This document shows, one piece after another, positions 8,794 to 56,487 of a stretch of DNA of 64,000 bases. Source of the DNA: a virus; IMG/VR virus record IMGVR_UViG_3300031949_000005, positions 64,001 to 128,000 of that record; one strand, given 5' to 3'. Numbering within the stretch: the stretch's first letter is position 1; the number at the start of each line of letters is the position of its first letter. Below the pieces are notes generated by a model. The model made no database searches. It was not told where the DNA came from and worked only from the letters and a program-made list of their open reading frames with translations. Position numbers and translations under genes: made by a program.

Positions 8794-9201
8794 TTATTTA
8801 CATCCCTTCCTAGCTCTAGGATTCCTGTTTTTGGCTCTTGTCGCCTTTTGACGCATCTTGGCCTCTTGTTCTTGTCTCGCCAACCGTTCCTCTCGGCGCA
8901 ATGGGTCGGAATTTATCGTGCCTATACGAATAGACTCATTGGTGGCCAATTTACATACATTTTTGCGCGGACGACATGCAGTTTTTCTTGACTTGATGTT
9001 CTGACCATCCAATCCCTTGGTTATATTGACGAACGGACGCTTGGTGGTGAAACCATAACGGCCATCTCCGGCGACTTTATCTAAATCACCATTAGATGAA
9101 AACCGTCTACCTCCTTTTACTCTTCGAGTCCACTCTAGTCCGAGCCTGTATGTTTTGAGGAATTTTTTATCCTCTTCTGTCTGGGGTATGTTATAGATCA
9201 C
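8794..9201 (-). CDS. basic (Arg/Lys-rich) hypothetical protein
   Basis: GTG start after AGGAG; the longer ORF overlaps tRNA-Ile. Confidence 0.55.
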   Translation of the reverse strand: MIYNIPQTEEDKKFLKTYRLGLEWTRRVKGGRRFSSNGDLDKVAGDGRYGFTTKRPFVNITKGLDGQNIKSRKTACRPRKNVCKLATNESIRIGTINSDPLRREERLARQEQEAKMRQKATRAKNRNPRARKGCK

Positions 9202-9225
9202 TTGGTTTACTCCTGTTAAAAATAT

Positions 9226-9300
9226 TGACCCCACCCGGATTCGAACCGGGAACCTCGATTTTATAAGAATCGCGCTCTAGCCGACTTGAGCTATGGGGCC
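9226..9300 (-). tRNA. tRNA-Ile(TAT)
   Basis: Reverse complement GGCCCCATAGCTCAAGTCGGCTAGAGCG; anticodon arm CGATT-CTTATAA-AATCG; GGTTCGAATCC. Confidence 0.9.
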
Positions 9301-9303
9301 GAC

Positions 9304-9336
9304 TGGACCTCCTGGGAATCGAACCCATAGAGGCCC
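9304..9336 (-). ncRNA. tRNA-Ala-like minihelix (acceptor stem plus T-arm only), or internally deleted tRNA
   Basis: GGGCCTC-TA-TGGG-TTCGATT-CCCAG-GAGGTCC-A: 7-bp acceptor with G3:U70 and A73; D and anticodon arms absent. Confidence 0.6.
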
Positions 9337-9349
9337 ACTTCTTCCACTG

Positions 9350-9991
9350 TTACTGCATTCCAATACCTAGGCCGGACGGTTCATCCCAACGAATATCGCT
9401 TTCGTAGGGACGACGTGATCCACAGACACTGTTGTGATATGCGCCATCACGACTTGGAACAGGATCGTGATAAGACATCCCATCGGGATTTTTCAACGTC
9501 TGCATAATACCCCACCACAGAGCACGCTTTGCGATTTTGTCTCCGGTCCTTATGGCCTGTCGGAGATGCTCATTGTTGAAAATGAGATCGTTGGCACGAG
9601 TCTTAATATCGTACCAGTCGGGTCTAATGATTTGAATATCGACCACAGGCACTGTCGTTGCTCGATAAACAGTCACAACAGACGGATCGTCGAGATAGTC
9701 GTAACTATGATTGCCTATGATGATCCTATCTCCCCGTGATAATTGAGGCGCGATATCCATCTTGAGTTCCATCCGACAGAACTTACAGACTTCCTCGCTA
9801 TAGAGGACGAAGAAGTCATATCTCGTCACGAGAGAGTTCCCACTATCAGAATACGTTTTCGATCCACCAAAGTATCTACTCCCCGTCGGAGTAAATAAGA
9901 ATTTGGGGTGGCTAACGATTCTGTCTAGAATCCCATAAAGAGAATTCTTGATTTCCGGCATGAACGTATCGCTACCATGATAGCTCAACAT
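9350..9991 (-). CDS. putative Pol-beta-superfamily nucleotidyltransferase
   Basis: TGSRYFGG, YDFFV and a later VDIQI aspartate; the first Asp of DxD is not obvious. Confidence 0.5.
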   Translation of the reverse strand: MLSYHGSDTFMPEIKNSLYGILDRIVSHPKFLFTPTGSRYFGGSKTYSDSGNSLVTRYDFFVLYSEEVCKFCRMELKMDIAPQLSRGDRIIIGNHSYDYLDDPSVVTVYRATTVPVVDIQIIRPDWYDIKTRANDLIFNNEHLRQAIRTGDKIAKRALWWGIMQTLKNPDGMSYHDPVPSRDGAYHNSVCGSRRPYESDIRWDEPSGLGIGMQ

Positions 9992-10010
9992 GGTGATCCC
10001 CTTTCCGGCG

Positions 10011-10412
10011 CTATTGCGCCATTGCCTTTTTGATGAAGGAGCACGCAGACATTAAGTCCTCTTCGCCATTAAGAATATTGACGAGGACTTCTCGTTTCCT
10101 AGAGTCGAGTCGGTGTAGAGACACTCCATTAGCCACTTCTTCGATAGCTTCACGGAAGAGTTGGTGTGCGGTTTTTTTCTCCTTTGTCTGGACGAAAGTG
10201 AATTGTCCAGTCTCGTCACGAGAGAGTTCCCACTCCGAAGCAATGGCTTTTACTATCATCGCCACATCCGGTATTGTTAGCCAGACACGATCGAAATTCT
10301 GGGTTATACTTACACCACCACTAGAATTCTTTGGATCGGAACTTACTTCGAAACCATCGGTGAAGTTATAACTTCTAAGACAATACATCACACAATCTCC
10401 TCTAACGGCCAC
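10011..10412 (-). CDS. hypothetical protein
   Basis: 133-aa ORF on the operon strand. Confidence 0.55.
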   Translation of the reverse strand: MAVRGDCVMYCLRSYNFTDGFEVSSDPKNSSGGVSITQNFDRVWLTIPDVAMIVKAIASEWELSRDETGQFTFVQTKEKKTAHQLFREAIEEVANGVSLHRLDSRKREVLVNILNGEEDLMSACSFIKKAMAQ

Positions 10413-10576
10413 CTTTTCAATTGCTTGCCGCGCATCTCCGGGTGTGCTTTCCGTAACTCTCGACGCGCCACATTCCTCGTCTTGGTTTGCGGATTACGAT
10501 GCCCCTTCGGATTGTTCGACTTCTTCGATTTTTTATCTTCCTTCGACGACATTTTCCTCTTCCTTTCGTTCGACTT

Positions 10577-10837
10577 TCATGTTTTCTGACTCTCGTGACT
10601 ATGCAGTGAACACAACCTACAAATCATGCCATTTTCATATTCTGCGTGGTCGAAAGATGGCCAGTGACACAATAGACATGGTAAATTGTCAAATCCCGTT
10701 ATCCCCATCTTGTCGGCACATTGACCACATACAAATCCCGCACTGTCTAGAACCGAATGATCATCGTGAAACCCTGTCTCTTCTTCGCATATGATACACG
10801 AAGGCATTACTACTCCGGTTTCTTCGTTAAGAAACAT
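10577..10837 (-). CDS. Cys-rich (zinc-finger) protein, paralogue of 1058..1384
   Basis: AAGGAG RBS before MFLNEE; four CxxC pairs. Confidence 0.65.
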   Translation of the reverse strand: MFLNEETGVVMPSCIICEEETGFHDDHSVLDSAGFVCGQCADKMGITGFDNLPCLLCHWPSFDHAEYENGMICRLCSLHSHESQKT

Positions 10838-10863
10838 GGTTGTCTCCTTACGTTTGGGGTTAT

Positions 10864-10935
10864 ATCCCATACTAGGATTTGAACCTAGATTCACCGTGTT
10901 GTCACAGTGCGTCTTACCAATTAGACTATATGGGA
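10864..10935 (-). tRNA. tRNA-like RNA with non-canonical anticodon arm (identity undetermined)
   Basis: TCCCATA/TATGGGA acceptor, GTCT-AATTGGTA-AGAC D-arm, CTAGG-TTCAAAT-CCTAG T-arm; anticodon arm CACTG-TGACAACA-CGGTG (8-nt loop, no U33). Confidence 0.75.
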
Positions 10936-10937
10936 TA

Positions 10938-11842
10938 CCAGCGTGAACACGCCAGAAGTGGCCACAATATCGCCGACTAATCCGCTTGTCGATTAGTAAC
11001 GAGATTGGTTCGCGGGCCTTTATAGACTAGAAGCGACGATAGATACGACTACCGCGCTACTATTTATTTGTCTCGTGGTGTCATTTCGGAGTACCATCCT
11101 ATAAGGTAAGCGCTAACTCACTCCCATAGGACGTATCGGTAAACTAAGAATTGCTAGACGGTACGGCGCTATCACCAGACCCGATAAGGTTGCGAGGCTT
11201 ACCAGACCCTTAGTTCCGACGCGCTATGGCCTAGGTTTACGGAGTTACACCGACAACCTATCCCCACCACAATTGCACTTATACTGTAACATATCCGACT
11301 AGACTTGCGTTAGATATGTTCGCGCGACAATTCTTATCAGGATTCTCACCGTATAGTCGCGCCATGTCTGATAAAACCATTTCGGTATGATACGATTGCA
11401 GGATAGTTTATTCCGACAAGCGCTATTCGCCACCGAAGCGCCCTTCGGTATTCTTGCTAAGCGCGCGGACTACCTACATCGTCCCATAACTTGTGTGTTA
11501 TCGGACGTATAAGCGTATACCGTTATATCGGCTAACGCGGGAATTATCGGACGCCTAATTCTCGGACCCTCTTCCCGAACTCCGATAATAATTTCGGGAG
11601 TTAGACCCTGCAAACGAACTAGGTCTTATAACGATGTTTCCCTATCGTTGACGGATTAGCGCGGACTATGCGCTCTCCCATTCTTATACAGCCCGATAAT
11701 AGGCCGTAATTCCGCATAAGACGCAACGCGAACAGCGCGTCTATTTAGTCCGAAGTTATCGGACGCATCGAATATGCGGCGAGGCGCGCACTACCGGACG
11801 AGGAGAATCCGATAATGCGCGATTGCGCCGGATACTCTGGTG
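10938..11842 (-). ncRNA. candidate giant structured ncRNA (~900 nt)
   Basis: No ORF of 60 aa or more within it in six frames; more than 15 helices found by eye, some nested; imperfections are G:U on the minus strand. Confidence 0.65.
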
Positions 11843-12163
11843 TTACTTCTTGCCGAGCTTTGCGAAGCTCGACTTCAATTTTGACGCACCTTGCCGACGG
11901 TTGAGGATAGCGTCAGCGACACCCGCTCCGTTATCGGAGCCGAAGCCTCGATCCGACGGCGGGGTATATCCCGAACCGTTTTCGGACCATTGCTTCAAAC
12001 TCTCAATCACGTCAAGCGCTTCGGCGATTGCATCCTCTCGCTCATCCTCGGCCTTCAGCGCGATTGCATCGACGAGCTTCTTCGTGTCGGAATACCGACC
12101 AGCATCGTCAAGAAATCGTTGCGCATCGAAGGCGACCTTCGGCTCCATCGTACCAGTTGCCAT
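11843..12163 (-). CDS. hypothetical 106-aa protein directly upstream of the candidate ncRNA
   Basis: AGGAG RBS; GC-rich codon use; own promoter. Confidence 0.75.
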   Translation of the reverse strand: MATGTMEPKVAFDAQRFLDDAGRYSDTKKLVDAIALKAEDEREDAIAEALDVIESLKQWSENGSGYTPPSDRGFGSDNGAGVADAILNRRQGASKLKSSFAKLGKK

Positions 12164-12256
12164 AGTAGACTCCTTTAGGAAGCTTCCTATGCGCTACCAG
12201 ACGATAGCACACGCTACCATCCGATAGCGCGTCAAACAAGTTTTTTGCTACATCAT

Positions 12257-12285
12257 ACTATAGCCTCCGGATTGTCAATAGTCAA
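12257..12285 (-). promoter_or_regulatory. sigma70-type early promoter
   Basis: TTGACT-17 nt-TATAGT on the minus strand. Confidence 0.65.
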
Positions 12286-12745
12286 GAGACTTGAACAAAT
12301 TATTTTTAGGTCTTATAATAAGGCACGACATAGAGTGTATATACAATAATAGTCGTATCCTATAATATATCACACTACTCAACAATAATAAGGATTTTAT
12401 TGACCGCGACCGATAAAAGCGCCCCTCGCGTTATTCCGCTAGTCCTATAATATATCACTTTTCTTGTCATGCTACACCATATTATTAGTATCGTCCTATA
12501 AAACGCTAATCCGATAATATCAAATAATGTCCCCGCGATAAACAGGCTCTTGTGTTATTATAGGATCGGTTCGATAATTGCTCGTAAAATCGCACGCAAA
12601 CATAATGATAATAAGCTAGGTCCGATAATCGCAGTTTTAGTAGTGATTGTAACAATATAGAGAGTTTTTGTCCGATAAAACAATCGGATTTTACCACATT
12701 CCGATAATAAAAAGAAGTGTTAGCGCTAAGGTTTTAAGCCAAAAT

Positions 12746-13990
12746 CTAATCTCGGATACCATGTCCGATAATCCTTCCATTGTATCCCTGTGCTCTTATT
12801 CGTCCGATAAGGCCAAAGAGCGCGTTATCCTTCCCGTCCGCAATATAGGACATACCTTCCAGCGCGTTATCATCGTCAAGGTACACCCGCGCTGTATAGG
12901 TGCCTTCGCCGATATGATCGGTTGCAACATAGAGCATTATAAGACCCTCCTATCCGTCGATGGTTATCGGATTCTTCCGTCCGTCAAGAGCGCGTCTATC
13001 CGCTTCGTCCGGTCCCTTGCGCAATTGCCCATACCATCCGGTCCGTGCTAGATTGTCCGATAATCTCTTCGGCGCTTCGTCCGGATTGAACGTCATTGCG
13101 CACGTACCATAATACTTCGAATGGAACGGTCCGGAAACAAACGCCAGCGTCAGATAACCGATTTGCTCGGTCTGGTAATTGAGAGTTTTCCGGCGCTTGA
13201 TTCTGGCAAGTATGGCTTCGCCGAAGGCAATTCGATACTTTGCACGTCTGATAATTGCTCCCACGATTCTTCTCCTTTATCGGACCAACTGAAGTTTGTT
13301 CCAATAATCCATTATTTCCGCTGCGCGGCTCCATCCTACAGGAAGCATAAGGTTATCGGTCGCGTGGGGTTCCCTGGTTTCGATAACCCTTCCGCCCCAT
13401 AAACTCGTGATATATCGGACCGCCGGTTCAACGTACGTTATCGGTACAATCATGTACTGGTTGCGCCTAGGCCCACGTCCTAGGCCGTCCCTATACGTAA
13501 TGAGAACCCGTTGTATGTACCCCATTGTACGCTCCTCGCTACCGATTGTCAAGCGGGAAAAACCGAACCTGTACCCCATCCGGTCCTATATCGTACGGAC
13601 CAATACAATGTCCAATAACTCCTTGAACGTCCGTATCCTCGACCCATTGTCCGTCCGATAAAAGAACCCGGTCACGTTCCGATAAGAAACCGTTGGCTAG
13701 ACCGATAATTGTTTCGGTGTGGTTATCGACACTAACGATGTCTCCAATACAGACTATCATTACCGGACTCCTTGCAGTGTGCTAACCCGTAGATTACCGG
13801 ACACACTGTCATATCCGATAACCTTGCTCGTACCGTCCGATAACGTAACCAGCACAGGCCCATCATCGTCCGATAGCGTATAAGCCGCCGTACGTCCGCT
13901 TGCCAGTGCCACCTCGTCCGATAACCCCTCGTAGAAGCTCGGTCCGATATTCTCCGAACCGGGGATATACAGTCTAGTTGTACCGAACAT
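12746..13990 (-). CDS. operon of five small early proteins (12746..12937, 12950..13264, 13277..~13525, 13539..13760, 13760..13990)
   Basis: Co-oriented ORFs with GGAGG/AGGAG RBS; GC-rich. Confidence 0.65.
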
Positions 13991-14002
13991 TGAAGCCCTC
14001 CT

Positions 14003-14074
14003 TTACGTTAACTCCCACCATACCTTGGCCAGTCCCATAACCACCATCGCCACGGCTAGACCGATAAGTGTCAT
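14003..14074 (-). CDS. 23-aa hydrophobic micro-protein MTLIGLAVAMVVMGLAKVWWELT
   Basis: Hand-translated; starts 1 nt after the previous stop; below the ORF-track cutoff. Confidence 0.45.
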   Translation of the reverse strand: MTLIGLAVAMVVMGLAKVWWELT

Positions 14075-14075
14075 A

Positions 14076-14216
14076 TTATCGGCCTTCACAATCGTTGTTA
14101 TCGGAACACAAGAAGTAACCGCCCGATGGTCCGAGAACACCAACACCCTCTTCCGTCAGATAAAACTTGCACCCGCCGCACGCCAGCAACAAAAGTCCCA
14201 TAAGTAAACGTTTCAT
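14076..14216 (-). CDS. 46-aa putative lipoprotein MKRLLMGLLLLACGGC...
   Basis: Hand-translated; AGGAGG RBS; signal peptide with lipobox-like Cys. Confidence 0.6.
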   Translation of the reverse strand: MKRLLMGLLLLACGGCKFYLTEEGVGVLGPSGGYFLCSDNNDCEGR

Positions 14217-14231
14217 CGTACCCTCCTTTTG

Positions 14232-14357
14232 TTATCGTCCGTACCGATTCGTTGCCAATCCGAAGGCATTGAAAACCAGTCCGATAGTTGCTAGTGCCAT
14301 AACCATCGCCCCGATGTAAAGCCCGTTGTTCGTTAGTAGGTTAATGATCGTTTCCAT
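14232..14357 (-). CDS. 41-aa single-pass membrane protein METIINLLTNNGLYIGAMVM...
   Basis: Hand-translated; first ORF after the 14407-14435 promoter. Confidence 0.55.
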   Translation of the reverse strand: METIINLLTNNGLYIGAMVMALATIGLVFNAFGLATNRYGR

Positions 14358-14406
14358 TGTCCTGTCCCTTCGTTATAAGCCCTTGTTATCCCCTTACCAC
14401 GAGTAT

Positions 14407-14435
14407 ATTTTAGCATACCGATCGGCAAGAAGCAA
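14407..14435 (-). promoter_or_regulatory. sigma70-type early promoter with extended -10
   Basis: TTGCTT-17 nt-TAAAAT with TGn before the -10. Confidence 0.6.
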
Positions 14436-14882
14436 GCCCGAAGGAAAGAATCTTTTTTTAGTCCGATAAGTTAAGATAGGTAGGATAGTCTGATAAATAG
14501 AAGATAGATATATAGTCCTATAGCTTAGTCAAGCTAGGTTCCGATAAGTATAGTATGATGATAGATAGGTTATAGGAGCTTAGCATAGATAGTCTGATAA
14601 TTGGAGGTCCGATAAGGGGAGTGGGTATTTTATGTTATCGGAGCAAGGCGGAAGGAACGTCCGAAAACGCGGGGGCCTGCATTCGCACCAAGACCCCAAA
14701 ACCCATCCATACTATAAAATCGGATCACTTGTTTTTATCTAAAGCTCCATGGCCTCATATCACAAGAAAATTTTAAAGAACATCTTGGCTGTTGCTATAT
14801 TGGTATGAGGTTTAGCGGTCGGCGCTCTTTCCAGGGATATCACGACTAATACTCGTGGTATTCCAATTGTCTTGGGGAAAAT

Positions 14883-30602: not shown

Positions 30603-31101
30603 ATTATGTATTCCTACATATACTGTTCTTAGAGATTCCAGAGAGAAAGAAGGACATGGATGGGAATTTAAACAACATAAACCAGAAAAGCGTCCACCGA
30701 GATGCGAAGGAATGATTATTAGTACACTTAAAACAGGAGATTATTCTCTTTTGAATTATGAAGATCTTTTAGTTATAGAGAGAAAACTTGATTATTCAGA
30801 ACTATGGGGTAATTATGGTAAAAGAAAATGTTTTGAAGAAGAATGTGAACGAATGCAAAGTATTAAATATAGGTATATAATTATAGAATCTCATTTAACC
30901 AGCGATGTGCTTAGTCTCTCTCCACCACAATTTTCAAAGGGTGTACCAGGACGTGCGTTAATTAGCTGGCTTTGTAATTTATCTTTATCATATGGCGTAC
31001 ATATTATTCCTGTTGGATCTTGTGGTAAGAAATATTGTCAATTAATCTTTGAAGAAGTGGTCAGAATAGAAAGAGATAGATGGACAACAAATGACAACTA
31101 A
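30589..31101 (+). CDS. ERCC4-domain nuclease
   Basis: DSRE, LKTGDYS, IERK motifs. Confidence 0.85.
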   Translation: MFMSRLCIPTYTVLRDSREKEGHGWEFKQHKPEKRPPRCEGMIISTLKTGDYSLLNYEDLLVIERKLDYSELWGNYGKRKCFEEECERMQSIKYRYIIIESHLTSDVLSLSPPQFSKGVPGRALISWLCNLSLSYGVHIIPVGSCGKKYCQLIFEEVVRIERDRWTTNDN

Positions 31102-34100
31102 AAATATTATAACATTACAAGATTTAATGGAAGGAGACGAAGGTAAGTACGCATATTTATTTCCTTATAGAGATCGTATACCGGAAGTACAAAATCATAT
31201 TTTTTCTGATATACAAAGATATAATCAAAGTATGGATAAAATAATTATTTCTAATATGTTAAATATTGATTATATCGGATGGACAGCTAAAGTTCTTCTT
31301 GGATTAGATCTCTTTCCTATTCAAATAGCAATGATTCAGACTTTATGGAAAACTCCTTTCCCTATGGTTGTAGCAGCAAGAGGAGGAAGTAAAACTTTTA
31401 CTCTTGCTGTTTATGTTGTATTAAGAGCATTATTAGAACAAGGAACAAAAATTGTTATCATTGGAGCAGGATTAAGACAAGCAAAATTAGTTTTCAATTA
31501 TATAGAAAATATATGGAATAATTGTTCTGTTCTAAGAAGTATAGTAGGTGGTGGGAAAAAAGGTGGACCAAGACAAAATGTCGATTTATGTTATTTTAAT
31601 ATTGGGGAATCTAGTGTTGTGGCGCTGCCTTTAGGCGACGGCTGTGCTTCAAAAAATACAGCAATAACTTATTTTGATAGATTTGGTACTATATCAGATT
31701 ATCAACCTAATCATATTATTGATAAAAATATTATAAAAAGAAATGAATCAGTTTGGGGAAATGGGAATTTTAATATATCTGATGAGTCCTATTGTAATGG
31801 TTTGCAAAAAACTAAAAAAATAAAAACCCATAAAGGATTTGAATTTGAAGCTACCCATAATCATAAACTTAAAATTTTAAGAAACCATGAGATAATTTGG
31901 ACACGTATGGATGAAATGCAAATTGGTGATAAAATTTTAATAGATAGAACACATAGGTGGCATAATGGTAATACAAATATAGAAAATGAAGAATCTTATG
32001 CTCTGGGATTATTAATTGGTGATGGATCATATACAAATCCATATACTATTGGTTTTGCTACACAAGACCCGGAATTGGCCCATGCTGTTAAAAAAATTGT
32101 GCCGATCAAACAAAGTAATTATCAAAAAGAATATGACAATAATCATTGGACATATCATGGCAAAGAAGTGATATCGTGTATATTTAATCGTTTCGGGATA
32201 TCTGACTATAAAACAAAAGATAAACAATTTCCATCTGAAATTCTTAGATCCTCAAGAGAAGTTACTTCAGCATTTATTTCTGGACTTTTCGATACAGATG
32301 GCTGCGTACAAATATCTACTGCTAAAGGCGGTATTGCTATTACTGTTAGTTTTTGTAATACAAGTAAAAGACTAATAGAGCAATTACAATATATATTGCT
32401 ACATTATGGAATAGTCGCCTATGTAACTTCCAGGAAAAGATCAGAAAAATGGGAAAGATGCTATGAATTGATTATTACAGGTAATGATGTTCTTAAATTT
32501 GCTAATGAAATTGGATTTAGACTTAAAAGAAAACAAAATAAATTATTAAATGCTATTGCTAATAAAAAACGATGGATGAATCACGGCGACGAAGTTCCAA
32601 ATATTTTACCATTGATGAGAAATATATCTAAAGACAATAAGGCTAAAAAAGGATTAATGAAAACATCATCTGTTTGTTATAAGAGATTATTGGGTAAAAA
32701 AACTGCTAGTAGACCTCTTGTTAATAATTTTCTTAGAATATATGGTAATATAAAAAATAATAACATTGATATTATACGAGGTTTAAATAATGATAATATA
32801 TATTATGACGAAATAGTAAGTATAGAAGATTCTGAATGTGTAACTTTTGATATTCATGTTCCAGATACTCATGAATATTGCGCGAATGGATTTTATAGTC
32901 ATAATTCAAAAATTCGTGGTTTCAGAGCGAATATCATCATAGCGGACGAATTTGCGTCCATCCCAGAGGATGTATTTGATATTGTCGTTAGAGGTTTTGC
33001 TTCTACTACAAAATCTCCGGTGGATGAAGCAAAAAGACTTGCTTTTCAAAAAAGATTAGCAAATATGGATTTACCACAAGATGTTAAAAACGTTATACAA
33101 GAAAAATCGCCGACTGGTAATCAGATAGTTTATTCTGGGACAGCATATTATGCTTTTAATCATTTCGCTAAAAAATTTAAAATGTGGAGAGAAATTATTC
33201 AAAGCAAAGGAAATGTTAACAAAGTTTCTGAAATCTTTGGTGGTTATACATCTATACCAGATAATTTTAATTATAAAGATTATGCTGTTATTAGAATTCC
33301 ATACAATTATTTACCAGAAGGATTATTGGATCAAAGACAATTAGCGCATGCGAAAGCTATGTTACCAAAAAATATTTTTCTTATGGAATATGGTGCGATA
33401 TTCGTTGCGGATAGCGATGGTGTATTCCCCAGAAGCTTAATAGAGGCATGTAGTGTGACACCCTCTAGACCAATTCAAACAGCAGATGGAGATGTTATTT
33501 TTACTCCAAGAATGTCTGGTGATTCCAAATTAAAATATGTGATGGGAATAGATCCTGCTGCCGAACAAGATAAATTATCTATTGCTATTATAGAAATTTG
33601 GCCTAATCATTATAGAGTAGTTTATTGTTGGTCTATTAATAAACAAGAATTTAGTAAGAGAAAGAAAAATGGATTTGTTAAAGAAGATGATTATTATACA
33701 TATGTATGTAATAAAACAAAGGATTTGATTTCTAGATTTAATATAATTAGGATAGAAATGGATAGCCAGGGCGGTGGATATCCTATATCAGAAATGTTAA
33801 GAAATAAAAAATTACTAGATAAGGATAAAAAAGATTTTCCTGTATATGAAATAATAGATAGAGATAATCCTCAATATACAGATGGAGAAGTAGATGGCCC
33901 ACATATATTGAATTTGGTTAAACAAAGTACAGAATATAATTCTTTGGCTAATATGTGTTTGCATAAAAGTTTTGAAACTAAAAGGCTCTTATTTCCAGCA
34001 TTCGATACAGTACAAATGTATTCTGCATTAATGGCTGAAATAGCCCTGGAAGTAAAAATAGATACATATGAAGAATGTGTCAATAATATAGAAGAAATGA

Positions 34101-34453
34101 AAAATGAAATATGCACAATACAAGTAACCGAAACATCTACTGGCAAAGAAAGATTCGATACCCCTAATGTTTCTCAACCAGGATCTACAGAAGGAAGATC
34201 TAGAAAAGGTAGATTACGGAAAGATAGATATACATCATTATTAATAGCCCATAAATATATATACGACAATGATGTTAAGGTTGATTTACCAATAGATTAT
34301 TCTGATGTTGTTGGTAATGTAAAAAAATATAGCCAAACTAATGAAAAAGAAGGTTTATATAGAGGTCCAGGTATGGGAAGAATGAAAAATGGTTCTGACT
34401 GGATGAATAAAAAGAATTCGTTTGGTGCTGTAAAAGATAGGAAAAAAATATAA
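31091..34453 (+). CDS. terL: terminase large subunit with intein
   Basis: ARGGSKT, IRGFRA..IIADEFA, GIDPA nuclease motif, KDRY; upstream of the portal. Confidence 0.88.
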   Translation: MTTKNIITLQDLMEGDEGKYAYLFPYRDRIPEVQNHIFSDIQRYNQSMDKIIISNMLNIDYIGWTAKVLLGLDLFPIQIAMIQTLWKTPFPMVVAARGGSKTFTLAVYVVLRALLEQGTKIVIIGAGLRQAKLVFNYIENIWNNCSVLRSIVGGGKKGGPRQNVDLCYFNIGESSVVALPLGDGCASKNTAITYFDRFGTISDYQPNHIIDKNIIKRNESVWGNGNFNISDESYCNGLQKTKKIKTHKGFEFEATHNHKLKILRNHEIIWTRMDEMQIGDKILIDRTHRWHNGNTNIENEESYALGLLIGDGSYTNPYTIGFATQDPELAHAVKKIVPIKQSNYQKEYDNNHWTYHGKEVISCIFNRFGISDYKTKDKQFPSEILRSSREVTSAFISGLFDTDGCVQISTAKGGIAITVSFCNTSKRLIEQLQYILLHYGIVAYVTSRKRSEKWERCYELIITGNDVLKFANEIGFRLKRKQNKLLNAIANKKRWMNHGDEVPNILPLMRNISKDNKAKKGLMKTSSVCYKRLLGKKTASRPLVNNFLRIYGNIKNNNIDIIRGLNNDNIYYDEIVSIEDSECVTFDIHVPDTHEYCANGFYSHNSKIRGFRANIIIADEFASIPEDVFDIVVRGFASTTKSPVDEAKRLAFQKRLANMDLPQDVKNVIQEKSPTGNQIVYSGTAYYAFNHFAKKFKMWREIIQSKGNVNKVSEIFGGYTSIPDNFNYKDYAVIRIPYNYLPEGLLDQRQLAHAKAMLPKNIFLMEYGAIFVADSDGVFPRSLIEACSVTPSRPIQTADGDVIFTPRMSGDSKLKYVMGIDPAAEQDKLSIAIIEIWPNHYRVVYCWSINKQEFSKRKKNGFVKEDDYYTYVCNKTKDLISRFNIIRIEMDSQGGGYPISEMLRNKKLLDKDKKDFPVYEIIDRDNPQYTDGEVDGPHILNLVKQSTEYNSLANMCLHKSFETKRLLFPAFDTVQMYSALMAEIALEVKIDTYEECVNNIEEMKNEICTIQVTETSTGKERFDTPNVSQPGSTEGRSRKGRLRKDRYTSLLIAHKYIYDNDVKVDLPIDYSDVVGNVKKYSQTNEKEGLYRGPGMGRMKNGSDWMNKKNSFGAVKDRKKI
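31643..32905 (+). mobile_element. intein (421 aa) with LAGLIDADG endonuclease
   Basis: G|CASKNT...ATHNH...LGLLIGDG...ISGLFDTDG...FDIHVP..HEYCANGFYSHN|S. Confidence 0.93.
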
Positions 34454-56106: not shown

Positions 56107-56446
56107 GGGGGCGAAAGGTATCGACCGGGTAATATGAAAAAAGTATTGCGTACCGAGGTTGCTAGTTGGCCTCGTAAAACAACTGGCAAAAGCCTAAACG
56201 GCAATCGTAGTTTTGCTTTAGCTGCTTAGGCAGCACATCAATCAGATGATGTCTATTAGTTTGATTGGTGAAAATAATAGGCTGATCCGATAATAATATC
56301 CTAATATTATTGGATAAGAGAAAATAGGATTGCTGTTTAATAAGCCTGTTGATTGGCGTGTTAAATTTAAGATAAATAATCAACTATGTACGTAGAAATA
56401 TTTTTGGATATACTTCGGGACGGGAGTTCGATTCTCCCCGCCTCCA
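56107..56446 (+). ncRNA. ssrA: tmRNA, tag (A)GNRSFALAA
   Basis: GGGGGCG/CGCCTCCA acceptor with G3:U; PK1 (CGAGG/CCTCG, GCTAGTTG/CAACTGGC); tag ORF 56200-56229; T-loop GTTCGATTC. Confidence 0.93.
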
Positions 56447-56487
56447 TTTTAAATAATTTAAATAAAAATAAATGTTAATGATATATT

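Follow-up and report, generated by a model that had tools for sequence, protein, structure and literature searches.

A candidate new class of large ornate RNA encoded behind a conserved small protein gene in uncultured phages

The locus described here is part of a window of 64,000 nucleotides, which covers bases 64001-128000 of the 167,640-bp IMG/VR virus record IMGVR_UViG_3300031949_000005 that is rated as complete by CheckV. The record belongs to a tailed phage, far from cultured phages, whose genes include those for a major head protein and for a large terminase that apparently bears an intein. At 31091-34453, a gene with a weak match to the large subunit of terminase contains intein-splicing and LAGLIDADG domains within its open reading frame (ORF) of 1120 residues and resembles a terminase interrupted by an intein. 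The phage also encodes a tmRNA (56107-56449; full-length Rfam match, 163.5 bits). The genome has an overall G+C content of 31.5% and a sole GC-rich island at about 8800-14400, where the content rises to 45-55%. There, on the minus strand, a gene encoding a conserved protein of 106 residues (11843-12163), with the Shine-Dalgarno (SD) sequence AAAGGAG preceding its ATG, is directly followed by a stretch of about 906 nt that is the subject of this study (10937-11842) and, directly 3' of it, by a tRNA-like element (10863-10936). Both boundaries had been correctly placed in the initial annotation of this DNA, which was made by a model from the letters and a list of ORFs: the stop codon of the upstream gene occupies 11843-11845 and the tRNA-like element begins at 10936. 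Five ordinary tRNA genes detected by ARAGORN follow the tRNA-like element on the same strand, all within 9 kb of the RNA, and a gene encoding a very basic protein of 146 residues is located downstream at 8794-9234 on the minus strand. Finally, an array of the octamer TCCGATAA/TTATCGGA extends from inside the RNA through small upstream genes (11181-14641).

The stretch between the protein gene and the tRNA-like element is non-coding. As already stated in the initial annotation, it is devoid of sizeable ORFs, with the longest one encompassing 47 residues when all frames are considered. Coding under an alternative genetic code was rejected, since the frame stays closed under every single stop-codon reassignment, with frames of at most 126 codons in 10937-11842. 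In a comparison with the related stretch on contig L164, substitutions are distributed over the three codon phases without periodicity (27/27/26), and homologous stretches do not contain a common ORF; the one of about 1290 nt in L122 has no ORF of 50 or more residues on either strand. At the same time, the stretch folds better than its shuffles and does so in a strongly strand-specific manner: the minus strand has a minimum free energy (MFE) of -338.7 kcal/mol (z = -7.14, 20 shuffles), compared to -284.2 kcal/mol for the plus strand (z = -2.45, 20 shuffles). The wobble signature that had been noticed in the letters is evident in 37 of the 305 MFE pairs of the minus strand, which are G:U and would appear as A:C mismatches if read on the plus strand. 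Together with the covarying homologues described below, these energies bear out the proposal of a large structured RNA encoded on the minus strand.

All twelve pairs of helix arms listed in the initial annotation lie where it had placed them, seven of them as part of the single-sequence MFE structure and the rest in the consensus fold of the window and L164. Near the 5' end of the RNA, a 14-bp hairpin with the loop UCUCCUC (11786-11820, minus strand), all 14 pairs of which are contained in the MFE structure and which is kept in L164, corresponds in position to the first hairpin of the wider family, which is variable and, in the main group of relatives, covaries (columns 49-56 with 110-117). 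A three-way junction closed by CCGCAUA/UAUGCGG (11712-11779, minus strand) is found in the consensus fold of both sequences and has undergone compensatory changes with respect to L164 at 11766/11723 and 11736/11730, both from GC to AU. Further 3', the minus strand contains a core domain (11533-11684) that aligns to a covariance model built from other subgroups and termed R2, and two modules that we refer to as A and B. Module A (GGGUCU...hairpin...GGGUCC, 11564-11608) places two G:U-rich self-complementary hexamers around a hairpin, and module B (GGGUCU...hairpin...GGGUCU, 11177-11209) shows a compensatory change from GC to UA at 11203/11183 in the comparison with L164. Across the consensus fold, 72 substitutions fall into unpaired columns compared to 36 into paired ones, and 8 compensatory (4 within the RNA proper), 20 wobble-compatible and no disruptive changes were counted, in a fold that was itself optimised on the same two sequences.

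Relatives of the locus were identified by an indirect route. Searches of viral contigs with single proteins of the window, of 106 and 213 residues, respectively, gave no matches, and the family was reached by a pattern search of IMG/VR for three close copies of the octamer, followed by tblastn. The contigs from the pattern search carry equally dense octamer arrays and, according to tblastn, encode relatives of the small proteins of the island, above all of the 106-residue protein. With an alignment of this protein as query, 9 viral and 33 metagenome loci were found, and a protein search led to L164, an ENA contig whose 106-residue protein is 58% identical to that of the window. Homologues of the protein are present in 20 distinct loci, each with an ORF-free stretch coming next. 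In about 20 distinct phage and metagenome lineages this stretch measures 0.9-1.3 kb and immediately follows the orthologous gene in the same orientation, and the stretches are alike from the first bases past the stop codon. The RNA is always located 3' of the same protein gene, and the relatives that carry versions of it are sediment phages. They comprise a main group, in which 12 sequences are full-length and several partial, with 60-80% identity across about 870-950 nt, and a second group (L122, L124 and L155) with 70-80% identity across 1.2-1.8 kb. Because the RNA and the tRNA-like element of the window and L164 are 87.9% identical over 1005 columns, compared to 58% for the protein and 59-81% nucleotide identity in other segments of the syntenic locus, the purifying selection acting on the RNA is stronger than that on the protein genes at its flanks. 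In L122 and L124, where the flanks are AT-rich, the module is GC-rich as well, and for this reason its composition looks constrained rather than recently imported.

Base pairing in the main group was investigated by several approaches. RNAalifold applied to 18 sequences yielded 118 pairs in the commonly covered part, 61 of which show compensatory double changes. One domain of 150 nt was aligned with MAFFT, which is blind to structure, and its pairing was compared to a control in which the partners were slid by 1-3 columns. In this domain, 97.7% of the cells are paired compared to 24-49% in the slid controls, 14 pairs contain double changes compared to 2-5, and 500 shuffles without exception fell short of the observed values. 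From end to end, the 12 complete sequences yield 215 pairs with 92.4% of the cells paired (36-41% if slid) and 122 pairs with double changes (40-54 if slid), to which all quarters of the molecule contribute. The relatives of the RNA maintain more than 200 base pairs via compensatory changes. As in the window, folding is asymmetric between the strands, with z-scores of -5.9 for the sense and -2.9 for the antisense strand of a member of this group.

The counterparts of the two modules stand out by their high content of wobble pairs. The equivalent of module A (columns 327-333 with 359-365) is paired in 94% of the cases with 67% of the pairs being G:U, and for that of module B (columns 707-714 with 738-745) the fraction amounts to 59%. 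With this proportion of G:U pairs, the GGGUCU helices can therefore form only in RNA of the minus strand. G:U is also the commonest combination at many conserved pairs, at several of them in 16-18 of the 18 sequences. In addition, two hairpin loops with the sequences UCAGC and GCUGA are complementary in 12 of 12 sequences and change together in L142, to UGUCGGUA/UACCGACA, in support of a contact between the loops that is either tertiary or intermolecular. A counterpart of this pairing was looked for and not found in the window and L164, and a search for conserved palindromes in the hairpin loops, which would hint at symmetric kissing of the kind seen in GOLLD and OLE, gave none.

The RNA of the window is very probably homologous to this family, with the evidence coming largely from its genomic position and from intermediate sequences. 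It is matched neither by the sequence profile of the main group, which does not match L123 either, nor by the covariance model R1, even with filters switched off; R1 matches L123, L122, L124, L145 and L155 at the corresponding place. L123 in turn aligns with the window over about 430 nt, and a profile built from the window, L164 and L123 recognises L155 (E 3e-9), L122 (E 1e-7) and L124 (E 7e-4), again at the corresponding place. The broadened model R2 finds L164 at the orthologous place with 19.6 bits (E 0.006 when 78 kb were searched). Its match to the window at 11533-11684(-) is weak (8.2 bits, E 0.048) and constitutes the top match of a 1.2-kb search on the correct strand. R2 proved specific, with the two known members as its sole matches in 862 kb of other viral DNA. 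The order of the two GGGUCU-hairpin-GGGUCY modules in the window also agrees with that in the main group. One close (L164) and one distant relative (L123) were found for the subtype of the window. Its copy is the most divergent subtype of the family, with a membership that is founded largely on synteny and intermediates.

The tRNA-like element at the 3' side of the RNA (10863-10936, minus strand) contains an acceptor stem, a D arm and a T arm and scores 47.9 bits against the Rfam tRNA model (RF00005), above the gathering threshold of 29 bits. Its 'anticodon arm' consists of a 7-bp stem and a 4-nt loop (ACAA); a 7-nt anticodon loop is absent and ARAGORN reports the element as 'tRNA-???' with the anticodon (acaa). 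In the corresponding element of L164, the acceptor stem covaries with respect to the window (10933/10867 from CG to UA and 10931/10869 from AU to GC), the T arm is conserved and the D/anticodon region contains an insertion of 22 nt; it is called as tRNA neither by ARAGORN nor by Rfam. In the window, L164, L136 and L149, the RNA is immediately adjoined by a tRNA or tRNA-like element, and in L128 such an element is found close behind it. For RNase P, RNase Z and the CCA-adding enzyme, the acceptor/T-arm half is the part of a tRNA that is recognised. The element of the window would therefore be suited to free the 3' end of the RNA, and it probably acts as processing signal rather than as decoder. 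A candidate transcript start is provided by a putative sigma-70-like promoter located 5' of the 106-residue protein gene (TTGACT-17-TATAGT, 12257-12285, minus strand), which matches the consensus at 10 of 12 positions, with a score that is joint-best in the region 10400-12800 and best on the minus strand. From this promoter down to 10400, the minus strand does not contain a terminator-like site. The non-decoding character of the 3' element, the obligatory upstream gene and the status of the window copy as divergent subtype within a wider family were all absent from the initial annotation.

The arrangement is reminiscent of MALAT1 and MEN-beta, where a tRNA-like mascRNA is located downstream and cleavage by RNase P at this site makes the 3' end of the long RNA. 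In both cases, a long structured RNA directly precedes a non-decoding tRNA-like element, although MALAT1 is eukaryotic and nuclear and the likeness would thus be confined to the processing logic. Within phages, the species 1 and 2 RNAs of T4 are stable molecules of about 100-140 nt that are co-transcribed with tRNAs and matured by tRNA-processing enzymes. In contrast to these products of a tRNA cluster, the RNA described here comprises about 900 nt and some 30 or more helices.

The 106-residue protein contains invariant T-P and F-G-S-x-N motifs and nearly invariant Y and D residues. At 50% identity, its family forms 70 clusters in a set of 1.84 billion representatives, with all members being about 100-130 residues long, and the protein is confidently predicted to be all-helical (AF2 pLDDT 89.7). 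The protein has no match in Pfam or PHROG. A Foldseek search of the PDB with the predicted model gave a best E of 5.4, VIA-align a Z of 3.4 at best, its histone-fold rows having an rmsd of about 10 Å, and the Atlas no named cluster at a value of at least 0.9, so that the fold searches offered no usable lead. Relatives were also absent from the bacterial and archaeal species genomes of GTDB, which therefore offer neither a prophage nor a clue to the host. The very basic 146-residue protein is 76% identical in L164 and is encoded downstream of the RNA in L122, L124 and L155, directly adjoining it in the first two, and it may act together with the RNA. The conserved order of the module leads from small genes in the octamer array to the 106-residue protein gene, the RNA and, in many cases, the 146-residue basic protein.

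The octamer array is strongly concentrated around the RNA. Counted as CCGATAA, it is found 47 times in the window, where 10 copies would be expected; 33 of the 47 are located within 11181-14641, and 34 of the 58 copies of the genome inside a 6-kb span around the RNA. Seven exact copies are contained in the RNA, where the octamer and its complement build conserved helices, and the array continues upstream for 3 kb. The copies sit inside small SD-preceded genes and AT-rich spacers, and upstream of 12200 about 73% of them share one orientation. Most homologous loci that extend far enough upstream have an array of 2-3.5 kb with 4-14 copies per 500 nt 5' of the 106-residue protein gene. In L169 (634-1527) and L170, a relative of the 106-residue protein is followed by 15 octamer copies in 900 nt and no recognisable RNA, so that the components of the module are arranged differently there. 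Possible roles of the octamer include protein binding, a Chi-like function or pairing with RNA.

In our best reading, the RNA defines a new class of large ornate phage RNA, which is an analogue of GOLLD and ROOL and a member of neither. The explanation that we favour as a whole, with moderate confidence, is that of an ornate RNA, from an undescribed family borne by large uncultured tailed phages, that is transcribed as part of an operon, released at the tRNA-like element and active in trans as scaffold. Transcription would initiate at the sigma-70-like promoter (12285-12257) to yield an operon transcript that includes the 106-residue protein gene, and the 3' end of the RNA would be released by an RNase P cut at the 5' side of the tRNA-like element. 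The mature RNA would then be a folded, trans-acting scaffold at the head of the phage tRNA island, possibly as ribonucleoprotein with the 106-residue protein, as suggested by the adjacency of its gene. In this way it would occupy a niche resembling that of GOLLD and ROOL, without kinship to either.

A different view of the same components, which we consider improbable, treats the RNA, the 106-residue protein and the TCCGATAA/TTATCGGA array as a single functional system of an undescribed kind. The extra octamer copies of the RNA could then find pairing partners among the 20-50 copies of the early transcripts or DNA nearby. Perhaps together with the protein, the RNA would provide the early region of the phage genome with a multivalent guide or scaffold for its organisation or protection, instead of being a free-standing GOLLD-like particle.

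It is also unlikely that the RNA acts exclusively in cis, as giant structured spacer or 3' UTR of the operon transcript that stabilises the mRNA of the 106-residue protein, sets the processing of the tRNA cluster or attenuates read-through. Such a role would be in line with its invariant position in the operon, between the protein gene and the tRNA-like element, and with the absence of a promoter and terminator of its own. However, known spacers and attenuators need far less than 900 nt with over 200 covarying pairs and a loop-loop contact that covaries as well, the RNA is the most conserved element of the locus, and its downstream neighbour differs by lineage, being a tRNA, a tRNA-like element, the basic protein or a hairpin.

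We regard it as very unlikely that the stretch is instead an element acting at the level of DNA, which would continue the TCCGATAA array as replication origin, packaging site or protein-loading region and whose hairpins would either be incidental or function in single-stranded DNA. The seven exact CCGATAA copies in the RNA, the 3 kb of array further upstream and its conservation in most homologous loci would fit this assignment, as would the termination of several contigs 0.3-3 kb downstream of the RNA. The latter is observed in the assemblies L123, L124, L126/L148, L141 and L162, and these independent ends suggest either a physical end of the genome or a repeat that breaks the assembly; in the record of the window itself, the module is located mid-contig. 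The pairing, however, is specific for one strand, with conserved G:U pairs that a cruciform or the opposite strand would present as A:C mismatches, the z-scores of folding differ between the strands, and the octamer array thins at the RNA in homologues.

Very few bacterial and phage RNAs exceeding 500 nt are of unknown function, with OLE, GOLLD and ROOL being the classic cases. We searched the locus with the 4227 covariance models of Rfam 15, which include GOLLD, ROOL, OLE, HEARO, introns and RNase P. The window stretch has no match at the gathering threshold and, in a scan of 10700-12000 with permissive filters, the RNA remained without match at E<=10, as did the RNA of L164; for ten homologous loci, no family matched the RNA at E<=1. 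The sole matches inside 10700-12000 are the tRNA-like element and a sub-threshold one of freshwater-2 over the downstream ribosome-binding site. In particular, the models of GOLLD (RF01998), including its conserved 3' domain, and of ROOL (RF03087) match neither the window nor L164 or the ten homologous loci, and OLE, HEARO, group I/II introns, RNase P and tmRNA are without match in 10937-11842. The suspicion voiced in the initial annotation, that the RNA belongs to neither GOLLD nor ROOL and may represent a new class, is supported by these searches. GenBank phages gave no blastn matches with the RNA of the window and of the main group as queries and no tblastn matches with the 106-residue protein, and a literature search did not reveal a description of the RNA. 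For comparison, the elements found in a survey of structured RNAs in IMG/VR average 67 nt (PMC10690425).

In light of these results, it is highly improbable that we are dealing with a strongly diverged GOLLD or ROOL beyond the reach of narrow Rfam models. The idea draws on a common niche, since both are large phage RNAs of 0.6-0.9 kb that are often found near tRNA islands and have no known protein partner, with some GOLLD copies adjoining or surrounding tRNAs (PMC12286853), and on the variable 5' half of GOLLD. The RNA shares with GOLLD that it is phage-encoded in a virus record, longer than 800 nt (906 nt), ornate and located near tRNAs, and with ROOL, a large structured RNA of phages and prophages, the frequent vicinity to tRNA islands. 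Conversely, there was no Rfam 15 match even with permissive filters at the thresholds given above, and a syntenic protein gene is undescribed for either family. The modules of the new RNA, two GGGUCU-hairpin-GGGUCY elements, UGGGAUAGG and GACACGACAC..AAUAAAC, differ from GOLLD, as does its invariable location 3' of the 106-residue protein gene and its embedding in the TCCGATAA array, and it was found only in uncultured phages, with searches for prophage or bacterial copies giving none. Compared to ROOL, it is about 50% longer and shows no conserved palindromic loop. Finally, a self-splicing intron, ribozyme or mobile-element RNA (group I/II, omega/bridge RNA or retron RNA) is scarcely credible since, despite the large, ornate and GC-rich appearance of the RNA in an AT-rich genome, the Rfam intron, ribozyme and HEARO models are unmatched, the module lacks a gene for a reverse transcriptase, transposase or homing endonuclease, the upstream gene stops at a conserved stop codon with nothing resuming past the RNA, and the position is fixed across all lineages.

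Recent cryo-EM structures of OLE, GOLLD and ROOL have revealed unexpected cages built of RNA only (PMC12286853). As a putative further class, the RNA lends itself to structure determination and to studies of how such molecules serve phages, offering a length of about 0.9 kb, more than 200 pairs supported by covariation, a covarying tertiary contact, unusual G:U-rich GGGUCU duplexes and a tRNA-like 3' element. The strictly syntenic 106-residue protein is a candidate partner and as such a handle that is missing from GOLLD and ROOL.

The family may extend to a further subtype. At L167 (2843-3900), a more distant relative of the 106-residue protein is followed by a gene-free stretch of 1.06 kb with 47% G+C that contains a GGGUCC-hairpin-GGGUCC module and has no profile match to the other subgroups. 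We also observed a conserved hairpin, GGGCCUACGGGCCGGGAAG, just 3' of the RNA in L127, L128, L130, L142 and L162, which occurs in main-group lineages without an abutting tRNA.
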